A stretch of 64,000 bases of DNA from Alphaproteobacteria bacterium (GTDB taxonomy: Bacteria > Pseudomonadota > Alphaproteobacteria > Bin95): the NCBI GenBank assembly GCA_964291285.2, contig OZ219788.1:512001-576000 (forward strand), given 5' to 3'. The notes beneath the pieces were generated by a model. That model did not search any database. It saw nothing but the letters and a program-made list of their open reading frames with translations, and was not told the DNA's origin. The position numbers and the translations under genes were made by a program. Positions 1,673 to 58,062 of the stretch are shown piece after piece (the stretch's first letter is position 1; the number at the start of each line of letters is the position of its first letter).

Positions 1673-3328
1673 TCAGGCGAGCAGGTACGGGGTGATTGTC
1701 AGGGGCAACCCCAAGGTGGCGTAGATCTGTTCCGCCGCGGGTGTGGGCTTCGAGGGGATGACGTAGCGGTTTCCCGATTGCCGGCAGCGCAGCACGGAGC
1801 ATTGGCGGTGGACGAGGGCGGAGCGGATGACCTCCGGGGACATCCTCTGCTTCTGGATGGCGACGCGGTATGCGAGGTGGCGGACACAGGCGAAGGCCAT
1901 GAAGGCGATGGCGATGTGGGCGCGGATGCGGTCCGGGTTCCAGTGCCATATGGGCCGCACCCGGAGGTCGTGCCTGGTGATGCGGAAGCTTTCCTCGACC
2001 TGCCAGAGCCCGTGGTAGTGGGACATCACTTCGGTGACGCTGGCGTCGCGCAGATTGGTGATGACGCCGGCGAGCCCGTCCCATTGCTCGGCCTCGGCGA
2101 TCTTCTCCGGGTTCACCGTGAGCCGGGCGTCGCCCTCGACGGCGATGAAGCGCTTCATTCCATGGTTGGAGAGCAGCTCCTTGGGATTGTTGCTGCGGGT
2201 CAGCCTGCCGAGCAGGCGCTGCACCTGCTTGCGGCGCTCGTGCGCGTCCTTGCGCGCGCGCTTGGGGCAGAAGACGACGATCAGGCGTCGGCCCTTGTAT
2301 TCCCATTCGCCGACCCGGCGGTTCTCCGGGCCCTCCAGCGGGGCATAGGCGTCCGGGTCGAGAAGCTGCTTGCGCAGGGCGAGCGGCAGCTTGCGCAGCC
2401 GCGCGCCGACGACATACGCGCCGCCGATCCTGTCCATGGCGTCGAGGTTGTCGGCGCTCAGCATGCCCCGATCGGCCACGCACACCATGCGCTCCACCTG
2501 GTGGCGGCGCTGCATGTCCCGCAGGACCGGGACCAGGCTGTGCCCCTCGTAGGTGGCGCCGGGGAAGACCTCGTAGCCGATCGGCAGGCCTTCGCGCGTC
2601 ACCATCAGCGCCAGCAGGATCTGCGTGTCCTTGTGCTTGCCGTCCTTGCTGAAGCCGTGCTGGCGAAGTTCGTCCTCAACCGCGCTCTCGAAGGAGAGCG
2701 TGGTGCAGTCGAAGAAGAGGATCGCGACCGGCTCCGGCAGCAGCGACCGGCTCGCCTCGCCGACCCGCGTGCGCAGACGCTCGATCACGGGCGCGTCGAG
2801 CTGGTCCATCATCCGGTAGACCTTCTCGAGCGGCAGGCTCACGCCGAAGTCCTCCTCGAGCCGGCGCACGCTGCCCCGCTTGCTGTCGGGGTTGGCGATC
2901 CGCGCCATCACCAGGTGGAACAGCGCGTCGTGCGAGGCGCGGTAGCGCGAACGCGGCAGCAGCGTGTCCAGGCCCAGCAGGCGGTACATCTCGCCGTAGA
3001 CCTCGTGCACGCCGGTGACCAGGCGCTGCTCCTCCTCGATCTGCTTGAGGTCGACCGGGAGTTCCTGCTTGCCGTCGCCCCGGCGACCGACGCGGATCAC
3101 CTGCCCGGCGATCTTCTCGGGCGCAAACAGCAAGGGCTGGCGCTCGTCCTCCAGCTTCGCCTTGACATACGCGCCGAGCTGCCTCAGGCGCTCGAGCTCG
3201 TCCTCGTCCATGGCCACGCCGATGTGGCGCACGATGCGCTGGCGCACCTTGCCGCCGTCGCGCACCGCCTCGACCAGCTGGACCGAGCGGCGCGGGCTGT
3301 TGGGCGTGGACTTGATGCGAACGAACAT
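1673..3328 (-). CDS. IS1634-family DDE transposase
   Basis: 551 aa; N-terminal MFVR..VQLVEAVRDGGKVRQR, FFDCTT, GFSKDGK, VADRGM, WQVEESFR, RIRAHI. Confidence 0.92.
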   Translation of the reverse strand: MFVRIKSTPNSPRRSVQLVEAVRDGGKVRQRIVRHIGVAMDEDELERLRQLGAYVKAKLEDERQPLLFAPEKIAGQVIRVGRRGDGKQELPVDLKQIEEEQRLVTGVHEVYGEMYRLLGLDTLLPRSRYRASHDALFHLVMARIANPDSKRGSVRRLEEDFGVSLPLEKVYRMMDQLDAPVIERLRTRVGEASRSLLPEPVAILFFDCTTLSFESAVEDELRQHGFSKDGKHKDTQILLALMVTREGLPIGYEVFPGATYEGHSLVPVLRDMQRRHQVERMVCVADRGMLSADNLDAMDRIGGAYVVGARLRKLPLALRKQLLDPDAYAPLEGPENRRVGEWEYKGRRLIVVFCPKRARKDAHERRKQVQRLLGRLTRSNNPKELLSNHGMKRFIAVEGDARLTVNPEKIAEAEQWDGLAGVITNLRDASVTEVMSHYHGLWQVEESFRITRHDLRVRPIWHWNPDRIRAHIAIAFMAFACVRHLAYRVAIQKQRMSPEVIRSALVHRQCSVLRCRQSGNRYVIPSKPTPAAEQIYATLGLPLTITPYLLA

Positions 3329-20477: not shown

Positions 20478-20879
20478 ATGATCGAACTGCTCGACCTCCG
20501 CCGCGACCTTGACGACCTGGTCCTGCTGGAAGGGCGCGGCGCCCACACCACGGAAGCGGAGGCGCAGGCCTCCTTCCGGAAGCTCGCCGACTTCCGCGAC
20601 GGCGGGCTGTTCGCCGCGCATTTCAGCGGCTCCAGCGGATGGGAGCGGCACCTCAAGGGCGACGAGATCGTCCAGATTCTCGAAGGCTCGACCCGCTTCG
20701 ACATCATCGTGGACGACAGGATCGAGTCGCACCGGCTCACCGCAGGCGCTCTCCTGGTGGTGCCGCAGGGCTGCTGGCACCGGTTCACCTCGGAAGACGG
20801 GGTCAAGGTGATGACCGCGACCCCGCAGCCGACCGAGCACCTGCATGTGGACGACCCGAGGGCGGTGAAGGCCGGCTGA
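20478..20879 (+). CDS. Cupin domain protein
   Basis: WERH..GDE...LEG and VVPQGCWHR. Confidence 0.85.
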   Translation: MIELLDLRRDLDDLVLLEGRGAHTTEAEAQASFRKLADFRDGGLFAAHFSGSSGWERHLKGDEIVQILEGSTRFDIIVDDRIESHRLTAGALLVVPQGCWHRFTSEDGVKVMTATPQPTEHLHVDDPRAVKAG

Positions 20880-21088
20880 CCGCGGCATCGGCGACAGGCC
20901 GGATGCGGCGGACGAAAGCGGCCTCCCGCCGCCCGCTTCGAGACGAGTTCGGAAGAGCGCGCCTGCCGCATCGACGGTTTCCGCACCGTGCTTGCGCCCG
21001 TTCCAGAGGCTGCGGCTGCCTGACCCGGCCACGCCGCGCTCCGCGCCGGGGCGGCGGCTGTGCTTCGGAAAGCGCTTCCCTGGCGCTG

Positions 21089-21115
21089 TGTCATGGAATG
21101 TCATGTTTTGTCATG
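21089..21115 (+). repeat. 10-bp-phased TGTCATG array, copy A
   Basis: TGTCATG-GAA-TGTCATG-TTT-TGTCATG; identical 27-mer at 55700-55726. Confidence 0.9.
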
Positions 21116-22090
21116 GTCGGGGGCGGAACCGGCGTCCTCCGGGCCGGTCCTCCGCTTCTTCCCCTTCTTCTTTTTCTGCTTCTTCCTCCTCGCCGCCGGT
21201 CCGCTCCAATCGTCATCTTCGTCGCCGCCCCGCTCTTCCCGTTCGAGGCGGCTCTGCCTGCGCTCCTCGACTTCCTCCGGGGCCCAGGGGTCGTAGATGT
21301 CGTCGTAGCCGTTGCGGCGCTGGTATAGCCAGTCATGTTCGGCGCCGTCGGCCCGGTCGTCGTCGGTGCTGTCCTCGTGGCCGGGCGTGTCGGCGGCGGC
21401 CCACGGGCAGTCTTCGTAGGTCTCCTCCGGCGGGTCGTCGGCCGGCGGCAGGTCGTTTGCCGGCGCGGGCGGGGGGCCGAAGCTGACGGGCAGGCGGGAG
21501 CGCTCCTCGACGGCCGCGGCGAGCCTGCGGGCGTCCTCCTCATGCGCGGCCCCGTCGAAGCCCTCCTGCGCCTCCATCTCCTCGCGCCGCTCGCGGTGGC
21601 GGGCGAGCGCTCGTTCGGCCCGGGCATGGCCGCTGCGCACGGCGTCTGCGAGCGGTCCGGGCTCGGTGCCCGCCTCCTGCGCCTCGCCCGCTTCGATCTC
21701 GCCGAACTCGTCCTCGTGCAGCAGCGGCCAGAGCCGGGCGCGGTTCGCGCCGGCCGGACTGACAAGCCCGGCGATCTCGGCCTGGAAGCGCAGCACCCGA
21801 AGCATCATGTAAGCCGAGCCGCTGGCGACGGCGGCGTCCCAAGCCTGCTCCGAGCGGGCGAGCAGGATGCGGGCCTCGTCGCGTTCGGTGCGCTTCCAGG
21901 ACAGGCGGATGCGGCGCACGCGTTCGACGATGTAGGGCCGCTCCAGCAGGGCGCATCCGGTCTGCCTTGCGGAGCGCTCGGCATAGCCGGCCTGCCTTGC
22001 AGCGTCGGCGGCATTGCCGGAGGCTGTGTAGTGGCGGCAGAAGGCTTCCTGGCGGGTGGAAAGCGCGACGGCGGGGTCGATGACGGGCAT
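21101..22090 (-). CDS. Orphan terminase small subunit-like HTH protein with acidic/basic disordered tail
   Basis: LSTRQEAFCRHY..SGNAADAARQAGY..RSARQTG..LL..P matches the TerS N-terminal pattern; AAAGGA SD before ATG 22090; 329 aa. Confidence 0.75.
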   Translation of the reverse strand: MPVIDPAVALSTRQEAFCRHYTASGNAADAARQAGYAERSARQTGCALLERPYIVERVRRIRLSWKRTERDEARILLARSEQAWDAAVASGSAYMMLRVLRFQAEIAGLVSPAGANRARLWPLLHEDEFGEIEAGEAQEAGTEPGPLADAVRSGHARAERALARHRERREEMEAQEGFDGAAHEEDARRLAAAVEERSRLPVSFGPPPAPANDLPPADDPPEETYEDCPWAAADTPGHEDSTDDDRADGAEHDWLYQRRNGYDDIYDPWAPEEVEERRQSRLEREERGGDEDDDWSGPAARRKKQKKKKGKKRRTGPEDAGSAPDHDKT

Positions 22091-22587
22091 GGTGTGCGGG
22101 TCCTTTCGTTCCGCTTCGGTTCGACGGCCATGCCGCCCCGGCATCGGAGCGACCCTTATCCGCGCGTATCCTGCGCGCGCCTGTGCCGGCGCGGGCGGGT
22201 GTCGGCGCCGGCGCGGTTCGCGCGCCTGATTGCGCGTGCGCGAGGCAGGCGCAGGGCACACCTCGCCTGTCGGCTGAATCGGGGTCGTTCCGCACCGGGC
22301 CGGCGCGGGCGGGAAGCGGTCCGCGCGGACTTCGCTCACCTCGGACCCATCATACCACGATTTCTGAAAATGCAAGCCTCAAATCAAGAATTATTACTTA
22401 AATTTCATGAACAACCTGTCGCGCCCTTTGTCGCCCTCGCGAAAGAGGTTGTGGAGAAACGGAGTAGCGGCCGCTCCTGTGGAAAGGGACACAACCGCAG
22501 CGAGTGCTCCTGCGGAACCTGTTCCCGGGCGTGCGATTCGATCCGGCCGAAGCGGTTGCCGGTGTGCGGTCAGCGCGGTGTCAAATT

Positions 22588-22602
22588 TGCGATTGACTTG
22601 CA
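22588..22602. promoter_or_regulatory. Fur-like box upstream of bfd
   Basis: TGCGA-N5-TTGCA near-palindrome 45 nt before the ATG. Confidence 0.55.
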
Positions 22603-22647
22603 TTTGCACATGGGTCAGGCTCTGCCGGTTCATCCGGGGACAGCGGC

Positions 22648-22866
22648 ATGTATGTCTGCATCTGCAATGCCTATCGCGACGCCGAGATCCGCGAGGCAGC
22701 GCGCTCGGGCCTGAGATGCGCACACAAGGCGTATGCGGCACTCGGCGGCGGCCCCCGCTGCGGCCGCTGCCTGCCGGTTGCCCAGGACCTGATCGACCGC
22801 GAGCATGATGCGCCGGTCGCCCTCGCGGTTTCCGCCGGGAACCCGCCCGGCGCGCGCGCCGGTTGA
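22648..22866 (+). CDS. bfd: Bacterioferritin-associated [2Fe-2S] ferredoxin
   Basis: MYVCICN...CGRC. Confidence 0.92.
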   Translation: MYVCICNAYRDAEIREAARSGLRCAHKAYAALGGGPRCGRCLPVAQDLIDREHDAPVALAVSAGNPPGARAG

Positions 22867-23370: not shown

Positions 23371-23481
23371 TTCTCTCTCCTGCCGCTGGAATGGCTTCCC
23401 AACAGGGAATTGTTGCATGAATATATGAGCTGAAACATCGCAATGGCAAGGACAATAACTTATCAATTCACAAACTTTATT

Positions 23482-23575
23482 TGCGACGGATTTTCATTTT
23501 CATTCGCAGAATATTTGCGAGTGTTTCGCATTATCTTTCGCATGCACCAGGAATTGAGAACGAGAAGAATTCTCA
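23482..23575. promoter_or_regulatory. AT-rich bfr upstream region with several Fur-like boxes
   Basis: Perfect TGCGA-N5-TCGCA at 23516-23530; degenerate copies at 23482-23496 and 23561-23575. Confidence 0.55.
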
Positions 23576-29415: not shown

Positions 29416-29567
29416 GCTTCACGACTCGGTGACGGAACGGGGCCGGTGCGAACGATAGCCGCTCGCCCGCCGCTGCGAAACCTCGCCGGGCTGCGCGGGC
29501 TGCCGGAGTCACGCCTCCCGTCCCGGCTCGTATGCAGTCCATCCCCTGTCCGCCATGTCTGCCCCTC

Positions 29568-29672
29568 CGTCATGCCCGGACTTGTCCCGGGGTCCATCCA
29601 TGGCTCGCGACGCCGTCCGCCGCCGTCGCCCCGGATGCCCGCGGGGGAGCCAACGGGCCGGCCTCAGGCGTG
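29568..29672. repeat. Degenerate alphaproteobacterial REP-like palindrome pair
   Basis: CGTCATGCCCGGACTTGTCCCGGG..CATCCA followed by a decayed inverted partner GGATGCCCG... Confidence 0.5.
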
Positions 29673-29709
29673 AAAGGGCTGTCGGCCATGCGTCATCCGC
29701 ACGACGGAC

Positions 29710-29731
29710 CATGACATCTCATGTCATGACA
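29710..29731 (-). repeat. Degenerate TGTCATG array at the glcF stop
   Basis: CATGACA-TCT-CATGT-CATGACA. Confidence 0.55.
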
Positions 29732-33945: not shown

Positions 33946-35124
33946 ATGCCCCGCTTTGTTGTTTGCGCCCTCACCGCCTTCATATGGCCGGCCATATCTT
34001 CCGCCGCAGATTGCGGCAACTGGAATACATTGGAGTTCTTCAAAGGCACTGTTCCCGAAAGTGTTCGGACTTGCCTTGCTGCCGGCGCTGACCCCAATGC
34101 GCGTGCAGACACAGACAAGGATATGACGCCGTTGCACATGGCAGCGTTCGCCAACGGAGACCCGGCGGTTATGGCGGTCCTTCTCGACGCAGGCGCCGAC
34201 CCCAACGCGAGGGCAGATAGGGGCTGGACGCCGCTGCACATGGCGATATTCGCCAACGGGGATCTAACGGTTCTAGCGACCCTTCTTGGTGCCGACGTTG
34301 ATTCGAAGGCGCAGAACGGCGGTAGCCCGATACGTCCGTACGCGCCTGCAGCCATGAACGACAACCTGGCAATCGTCGCGATCCTCCTCGACGCGGGCGC
34401 TGACCCCAACGCGCGGGTCGATAAGGGCTTGACGCCGCTGCAGATAGCAGCGTCCGTCAGCAGGGACCCGGCGGTTCTGGCCGCCCTTCTTGATGCCGGC
34501 GCCGATCCGAAGGCGCGAAGCGAAGGCGGCTCGACACCTCTACACGCGGCTGCAATCATGAACGACAATCCGGCAGTCGTCACAGCGCTGCTTGACGTCG
34601 GCGTTGATCCAAACGCTAGGGAAGATCAAGGTTGGAGCCCCCTTCACGCTGCGGCGCGCCACAACCGGAACCCGGCGGTTCTGGCCGCCCTGCTCGATGC
34701 TGGCGCCGACCCGAAGGCACGGGAGGAATACAACCAGACGCCTTTGCATCTGGCGGCAGCACACAGCGAGAATCCGGCCGTTCTGACAGTGCTCCTCAAT
34801 GCTGGCGCTGACCCCAACGCGCAAGCAACTAGAGGCCTTACGCCCCTTCATATGGCTGCGGTCGGCACCAAGAATCCGGCAATCGTGACGGTGCTGCTCA
34901 ATGCCGGAGCTGACCCGAAAGCGCAAGCCGGTGGAAGCTGGACGCCGCTGCATGTGGCTGCAATGAAGAGCGAGAACCCGGCAGTCGTGGCAGCGTTGCT
35001 TGACGCCGGTGCCGACCCGAAGGCGCGATCTCATGACGGCAACACTCCTTGGGACTTGGCGAAGGACCGAGAGGCTCTGAAGGGAAGCGACGCCTATTGG
35101 CGGCTCAATGACGGGCGTTTCTGA
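33946..35124 (+). CDS. Secreted ankyrin-repeat protein
   Basis: Signal peptide then about 10 repeats of about 34 aa, TPLHxAA..NPAV..LLDAGADPxAR. Confidence 0.95.
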   Translation: MPRFVVCALTAFIWPAISSAADCGNWNTLEFFKGTVPESVRTCLAAGADPNARADTDKDMTPLHMAAFANGDPAVMAVLLDAGADPNARADRGWTPLHMAIFANGDLTVLATLLGADVDSKAQNGGSPIRPYAPAAMNDNLAIVAILLDAGADPNARVDKGLTPLQIAASVSRDPAVLAALLDAGADPKARSEGGSTPLHAAAIMNDNPAVVTALLDVGVDPNAREDQGWSPLHAAARHNRNPAVLAALLDAGADPKAREEYNQTPLHLAAAHSENPAVLTVLLNAGADPNAQATRGLTPLHMAAVGTKNPAIVTVLLNAGADPKAQAGGSWTPLHVAAMKSENPAVVAALLDAGADPKARSHDGNTPWDLAKDREALKGSDAYWRLNDGRF

Positions 35125-55699: not shown

Positions 55700-55726
55700 T
55701 GTCATGGAATGTCATGTTTTGTCATG
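55700..55726 (+). repeat. 10-bp-phased TGTCATG array, copy B
   Basis: Identical to 21089-21115. Confidence 0.9.
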
Positions 55727-58004: not shown

Positions 58005-58062
58005 CATGACATTCCATGACATCGCACGGCCTCCTCATGACAAAACATGACATTCCATCACG
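58005..58062 (-). repeat. TGTCATG arrays C (2 units) and D (3 units), inverted relative to copy B
   Basis: CATGACA at 58005, 58015, 58036, 58046 and CATCACG at 58056. Confidence 0.88.

Follow-up and report, generated by a model that had tools for sequence, protein, structure and literature searches.

The gene at positions 21101 to 22090 of the window (the whole stretch of 64,000 nucleotides analysed here) encodes a protein resembling the small terminase subunit (TerS) of phages and belongs to a dispersed family of cassettes of about 1.35 kb, built of an AT-rich promoter-like end, a 250-nt GC-rich leader, a Shine-Dalgarno sequence, the gene and an array of a short word in strict 10-bp phase. 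We regard the cassette as an undescribed type of dispersed one-gene element whose protein likely recognizes its own array, and the hijacking of phage packaging as the best mechanism we can offer, although we hold it tentatively. A literature search of titles and abstract openings, mostly outside subscription journals, found no description of such an element.

The 329-aa protein carries the TerS-type helix-turn-helix (HTH) N-terminus that an earlier note on this DNA had pointed out: residues 11-72 match PF03592 (profile positions 2-63 of 141; E 1.7e-11, 45.3 bits against a cut-off of 26.1), the TerS families PHROG 51, 2606 and 641 match the same N-terminal part, and an NCBIfam search of the protein gave no match. 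The gene is laid out as HTH (residues 9-72), acidic and proline-rich linker, conserved DWLYQRRNG motif and variable end. The acidic Pro-rich stretch described before lies at residues 201-295 (33% D+E, 14% P), while the Lys-rich end is present in the window gene (residues 296-312, 59% K+R) but is not a conserved trait, being absent from two of the ten copies in this genome and from several relatives. The gene's own Shine-Dalgarno sequence and AT-rich upstream region, its place between a cupin gene and bfd, and the lack of adjoining phage genes were as the earlier note had it, the neighbors being the cupin gene and bfd-bfr (Table 1). The word "orphan" holds for the locus and not for the genome, where ten near-full copies occur; the count of paralogues that had been proposed gave PF03592 matches at 12 places. 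No catalytic domain was recognized in the protein by domain search, model, fold match or an atlas search with residues 110-290, in which the best score was 0.83 and gave no lead. AT-rich boxes, probably iron-regulator sites, lie upstream of bfd (22584-22614) and bfr (23478-23542), the former being conserved among the genus loci that were read.

Table 1. Features of the window discussed in the text (positions are those of the window)
Feature	Position	Strand	Remark
Cupin gene	20478..20879	+	host flank, outside cassette
Stretch missing as a whole from four relatives	20884..22582	.	the cupin gene there abuts the bfd upstream box
Outer flank beyond array	21038..21088	.	weakly conserved for ~20 nt in all copies; end not sharp
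Three-unit array	21089..21115	-	CATGACA on gene strand, period 10 bp
Small-terminase-like gene	21101..22090	-	329 aa
GC-rich leader	22091..22340	-	conserved core 22213-22301 common to 91 genome places
Shine-Dalgarno-like AAAGGA	22101..22106	-	10 nt ahead of ATG
AT-rich promoter-like end	22341..22420	-	36% GC
bfd gene	22648..22866	+	host flank, outside cassette; bfr beyond
Second array of the family	55700..55726	-	cassette cut off by IS-like sequence
Third array cluster	58005..58052	+	CATGACA on + strand; cut off by IS-like sequence

The heptamer TGTCATG starts at 21089, 21099 and 21109, and it occurs 18 times in the window against 3.7 expected (fivefold; none of 100 shuffles reached this count). 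In gene orientation, unit 1 supplies the codons for HD, unit 2 holds the TGA and unit 3 follows the stop, in agreement with the earlier statement that the last codons of the gene are encoded by the array. Since each of the three frames of a three-unit array with 10-bp period contains a TGA, no ORF that runs into such an array can read through it; it is the register of the junction between gene and array, not the stopping itself, that is informative. The stop lies in unit 2 in 45 of the 52 related genes that end in a multi-unit array; among 80 related loci, these 45 are accompanied by four with the stop in unit 1, three with it in unit 3, three with a single unit, 16 that stop outside any unit and nine that run off the contig. 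Shared descent may be the source of much of this register. The association of homologues with the array, which the earlier note had put forward for checking, was found both in protein (the array-encoded C-terminal peptide occurs in 105 of the 120 matches listed, of 310) and in DNA (47 of 71 readable loci end in an array). Elsewhere in the window, a degenerate array with opposed units (29550-29731) lies between glcF-like and acetoacetyl-CoA synthetase-like genes and adjoins a REP-like palindrome beginning GTCATG, and positions 34174-35026 hold long tandem repeats of 102 and 204 nt that are ankyrin-repeat-like by period. A link of the array word to REP-like palindromes beginning GTCAT was rejected, since only 4 of 472 TGTCATG outside arrays continue as CCCGGA.

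Across the genome there are 901 TGTCATG and 252 same-strand pairs exactly 10 nt apart, forming 115 arrays, or 102 when grouped as clusters. Ten near-full cassette copies, the window's included, share 82-97% nucleotide identity, and eight further copies are internally deleted, keeping the first gene codons and both ends. A profile of the leader matches 91 places, and a leader lies within 3 kb of 83 of the 102 array clusters on the proper side and strand, with none on the wrong strand. The cassette travels whole, from promoter-like end through leader and gene to array, and shortened copies keep both ends. Most copies are gene-less or hold gene remnants, yet retain leader and array. Cassettes occur about once per 55 kb on three large contigs, without strand bias, and at fourfold lower density on C5. 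IS insertions like those at the window arrays recur inside leaders elsewhere in the genome, which explains some of the unpaired arrays. At least seven cassettes carry, with the same leader and array, a second cargo ORF (L408:201-857(-), L409:346-825(-)) that starts MTATDPRP or MTETDPRP, has an acidic tail and gave no convincing Pfam match; it was considered as a homologue of the TerS-like protein and rejected, as the two are unrelated. Outside the cassette family, three identical iteron-like repeats (G000 C2:12076, C3:1914958 and C5:11410) show TGTCATG spaced 24 nt apart after an AT-rich stretch.

Both ends of the cassette are ragged, neither being sharp, and the flanks diverge within about 20-60 nt. 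The flank at 21038-21088 is common over about 50 nt to the window copy and three others, and the sequence shared beyond the array runs to 0-165 nt in 95 clusters and to more than 400 nt in seven. No terminal inverted repeat or target duplication was found at the cassette, the longest word common to both flanks being 7 nt. Nine full copies are mosaics of each other: four-gamete conflicts affect 1602 of the 3189 distant site pairs and 158 of the 512 close ones.

The cassette has been inserted at sites that are empty in relatives. Among 16 other bfr loci in 15 genus genomes, four (G009, G002, G016 and G010) have an empty site, with little DNA between cupin gene and bfd upstream box, whereas G006, G007 and G014 have the cassette, a deleted form or the promoter end between cupin gene and bfd, and the remaining loci have different inserts or neighbors. 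The gap between cupin gene and bfd is an insertion hot spot, occupied by toxin-antitoxin-like pairs, IS elements or the cassette (L041, L046, L047, L049 and L050). The protein is under purifying selection in its HTH region: over residues 9-72, dN/dS is 0.20 among the ten copies of this genome and 0.15 among 12 genes of relatives; the overall value is 0.37, and that of the last 39 residues, in which the Lys-rich end is present in some genes and absent from others, is 0.8. A decaying prophage relic was therefore rejected on its intact copies, the HTH dN/dS of 0.15-0.2 and the empty sites in relatives, and an assembly artefact on the presence of ten copies at separate sites and of the family in many independent MAGs. 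Either one is barely credible for the window copy, which has its own promoter-like end and no phage genes beside it, even though the nearest named families are those of phage TerS. Contigs of runs X1 and X2, which may be the source sample, match one flank perfectly as far as 21084 and the other from 22321 onward, and are interrupted in the repeat.

The exact triple array is present in 14 of 17 genus genomes and in none of 24 others. Arrays and protein were found together in 13 of these 17 genomes, which are kin and not independent, arrays only in one, and neither in three, each of the three at 100% completeness; in a 401-genome sample of the phylum, a looser array pattern gave 98 matches here and at most two in each of the others listed. 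Related copies came from MAGs of uncultured Alphaproteobacteria or Rhodospirillaceae, one of them Spongia_Bin9, and from a sponge metagenome run. The earlier suggestion of a "domesticated or selfish TerS module" is best kept in its second half, as the cassette is patchy at this site and was not found in 3 of 17 genus genomes. For the same reason a domesticated nucleoid organiser acting at about a hundred chromosomal sites is disfavored: the fairly even spread of the arrays and a 10-bp phase suited to DNA wrapping speak for such a role, but a site occupied in some species and empty in others, ten gene copies, the lower density on C5 and copies broken by IS leave it very improbable.

The promoter-like end contains TTGCAT (22370-22375) and, after 15 nt, TG-n-TATGAT (22349-22354), both read by eye; a strict promoter scan with a spacer of 16-18 nt misses this end. 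The window leader alone folds at z -4.1; searched against Rfam, it gave no match at the gathering score, and 55 leaders showed many broken pairs and no compensatory ones. A structured RNA leader was rejected for lack of an Rfam family and of covariation across the 55 copies. Since the leader is conserved as primary sequence without compensatory changes, it looks like a conserved DNA site. In RNA run X23, contigs (which give no strand, start or level) of related leaders and ORFs were found, with almost none in run X24. The alphaproteobacterial LexA box is GTTC-N7-GTTC, and LexA control of the window copy was rejected, as there is no box and the best match near the promoter reaches 5/8. A near match, GTTC-N7-GATC, occurs in 7 of 39 scored cassette promoters, of another subfamily, and the canonical box is present at the lexA promoter of a relative.

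The model of the protein (76 rows, mean pLDDT 74.8) is all-helical, with the HTH, a long hairpin to residue 106 and family-specific helices at 146-198 and 243-286. Foldseek ranked SF6 TerS (4zc3) first, with an rmsd of 0.8 A over 50 residues, probability 1.0 and E 0.3, and its viral list was led by phage TerS models, none at E<=0.001. Four copies of residues 6-125 were predicted to associate, with a score of 0.44 against 0.02 for the best control, an interface mainly at 69-110, and runs agreeing in at least 75% of contacts at pLDDT of at least 73; among reference cases, 20 of 30 solved pairs reach this mark, as does 1 of 23 single chains, and the pass, obtained with four copies only, may stem from likeness to solved TerS rings. 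SF6 TerS carries a C-terminal beta barrel; the single-chain model contains no strands, and a barrel to which several chains contribute would be invisible in it.

The protein is like G1P of SF6/SPP1 (PF03592; 4zc3, 2cmp, 3zqq) in its N-terminal HTH, by sequence and fold, and may be like it in the oligomerization predicted through the helices after the HTH. Direct repeats at the gene are a further likeness, the pac of SF6/SPP1 spanning promoters and the gene start (PMC4737164). Unlike in SF6/SPP1, however, there is no terL, portal or capsid gene beside the gene, the protein has 200 extra residues, and the repeats stand at the 3' end, in strict 10-bp phase and in many dispersed copies. The SF6 DNA-binding domain is reported to bind weakly and without specificity, and hardly to prefer pac repeats (PMC4737164); here, in contrast, word and helix partly co-vary.

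Judged from sequence comparisons, the protein quite probably binds the array at the end of its own gene. Distant lone homologues, often multicopy, occur in other alphaproteobacterial families (nine in G033, four in G255 and five in G338), and a profile of these homologues also found lone ones in metagenomes. A phased array (period 10 or 11, p<=0.01) lies at the stop in 9 of 28 such homologues as compared to 1 of 68 viral TerS genes, the 28 loci having been chosen by eye as lone with a readable 3' end, with short prophage-like matches and five loci running off the contig excluded. The words of these arrays differ: GCC(C/G)ACA in L326, L327 and L329; GATGAC in L328; GTTGACG in L368, L373 and, by eye, L358; GCCTAC in L371; GA(C/T)GACA in L367; AAAGCCC in L389; and CATGACA or CCTGACA in the window's clade. 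The words were compared with the recognition helix on a tree of 37 N-terminal domains. L328, a sister of L326/L329 in the same genome (99/96 support), has the helix SVRNQA where they have NARGQA, and another word; L371, nested with L368/L373 (100/98), has SARRQA where they have TARQQA, and again another word. In addition, TARQQ goes with GTTGAC in two separate clades (L358 and L368/L373), as does RNQ with GA(T/C)GAC (L328 and L367). A word that changes with the recognition helix between sisters matches the prediction of a lock-and-key relation and supports it, in a small sample read after the fact. A simple two-residue recognition code, derived afterwards from about ten loci, was rejected, being broken by P0171 and P0178, which have an RQQG helix yet a C-terminal peptide implying CATGACA, and by P0233, with an RNQ helix yet a peptide implying GCCGACA. 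L375 and L378 have a common word and unlike helices, and a search for fresh loci to test the code found almost none.

No significant array was found at 19 of the 28 distant lone homologues, the multicopy G033 family among them, indicating that multiplication does not require the array. The nine G033 genes (L056-L061, L336, L342 and L349) form two subfamilies with no phased array, and their conservation starts sharply at the -35 box, in flanks full of REP-like palindromes. The cultured species Skermanella rosea has a lone homologue as well (L407, plasmid pSR-2, 3465-4196; WP_203099292.1), which has two TAGTGACC motifs near the gene end, with the same word as its relative L363.

TerS ancestry together with the precedent of satellites makes packaging the likeliest purpose of such binding. 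Satellite TerS genes are thought to redirect packaging (PMC9618062), and the PLE is described as mimicking a pac site (PMC11417361). We therefore propose, with somewhat less than even confidence, that the cassette is a minimal pac module whose oligomer, likely bound to its own array, draws the large terminase of an infecting phage there to start packaging. The oligomer is predicted to form through helices 69-110 and to display several HTHs, which may take up one HTH per 10-bp unit on a single face of the helix; the few intact copies would then serve roughly a hundred arrays in trans. In the weakest step, packaging from the arrays would bring the cassette and its flank into other cells; there, recombination with copies already present or at short homologies may produce mosaic copies, ragged ends and carried-over flanks. 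Packaging accounts for transfer from cell to cell and not, by itself, for new chromosomal sites.

Five TerL Pfam searches found no TerL in the genome, and one divergent TerL, on another contig, was reached via a weak portal match. A satellite-like island (G000:C2:85335-96857; L359, L360) has an integrase-like ORF, HK97-type TerL, major capsid, protease-like ORF and portal, an AlpA-like ORF (by eye) and a D5-type primase split by an IS, with no separate terS recognized in it. Its TerL was matched in only 4 of 17 genus genomes, with close matches in G010 and G002, and on this ground conserved partner packaging genes were rejected. An infecting phage would be needed as helper, since the island TerL is not a fixed partner. 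Viral contig L077 has the same form of array (3001-3027) directly ahead of its terS and terL. Of the viral loci with the array word, 8 of 18 have terL no more than 3 kb away, against 9 of 35 for the reversed word (p=0.22; 64/87 and 30/35 test ORFs against all 126 control ORFs of at least 200 aa, long ORFs being cut to 450 aa in the later two and both sets containing related contigs), which gives no word-specific support for a link between array and terL. In phages the reversed control word, too, makes up genuine phased arrays, next to terL or to replication genes (L261-L295), so that 10-bp heptamer arrays are a general phage feature. Neither the 80 viral TerS loci nor the 18 viral array loci contained a close copy of the cassette.

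The cassette shares with PICI/SaPI, PLE and VEIME satellites a TerS without the rest of the phage (PMC9618062) and a selfish, patchy distribution. It differs from them in lacking integrase, primase, replication genes and regulator, having a single ORF that matches only PF03592 and TerS-type PHROGs, and in lacking flanking att direct repeats, the longest word shared by its flanks having 7 nt; it is 1.35 kb and not several kb long, and it occupies a hundred scattered sites and not one island.

An array-binding transcription regulator in the manner of Ltr/RinA, or a self-repressor, would involve no packaging and would leave the spread of the cassette to another enzyme. The layout of the cassette is that of the Ltr/RinA/ArpU modules of Gram-positive phages, in which an HTH gene is directly followed by direct repeats that its product recognizes, in cognate pairs (PMC3753634); in viral contig L077 a sigma70-like promoter stands between the array and terS-terL, and a GCATG-N9-CATA motif is conserved next to the array in one subfamily of short cassettes. 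The protein here, however, is of TerS type and not of the Ltr family, the cassette is chromosomal and multicopy, no promoter, conserved target gene or late promoter/terS operon follows the array, and the flanks diverge. We consider regulation an unlikely role.

IS elements and their MITE derivatives exist as full copies and as internally deleted copies that keep both ends. The cassette resembles them in its dispersed copies without strand bias, its deletion derivatives beside autonomous-like copies and its empty sites in relatives, and a new transposable element could be imagined whose protein, as an adaptor bound to the ends, would wrap array and leader and bring in, in trans, an enzyme of the host or of another element for nicking or recombination, with no phage involved. 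Flanks shared over varying lengths, a feature of one-ended or rolling-circle transposition, would suit such an element, as would the sharp start of the G033 homologues. It is decidedly unlikely, since the cassette has no transposase or other catalytic domain, no terminal inverted repeat, no target-site duplication and no sharp ends, and no candidate enzyme is linked to it.

An anti-phage decoy, in which the TerS-like oligomer with its acidic tail would poison phage packaging or divert it to host arrays and benefit to the host would favor many copies, is quite improbable. A TerS core that is conserved but extended by a long non-TerS part, the conserved DWLYQRRNG motif and a strong promoter-like end would fit, and a satellite TerL inhibitor, Gpi, is known (PMC11417361); but leader and array would be unneeded for defense alone in the many copies that keep them without an intact gene, and the window copy sits among metabolic genes.

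Overall, by what defines each of them, the cassette is not a satellite, an IS element or MITE, an Ltr module or an ordinary prophage TerS, and it partly works like each. If phage packaging is indeed the purpose, a wider picture, which we regard as doubtful, would be one of widespread one-gene parasites in which HTH and own-stop array co-evolve like a lock and its key, with a distinct word in every subfamily, and in which a hundred chromosomal packaging starts would let any infecting headful phage transduce both the cassette and the entire host chromosome.

Should the protein read its own array, the subfamilies would be natural helix-word pairs for learning how small terminases choose DNA, the best-studied relative selecting DNA by shape and not sequence. 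A gene annotated "terminase small subunit" is not necessarily a relic when it lies outside a prophage, and a repeat family that spreads to about 100 copies per genome with no transposase, integrase or terminal repeats must move by a route not yet described. If phage terminases are recruited, uncultured symbionts would possess a built-in route of gene flow, and the cassette would be, to our knowledge, the smallest known packaging parasite.
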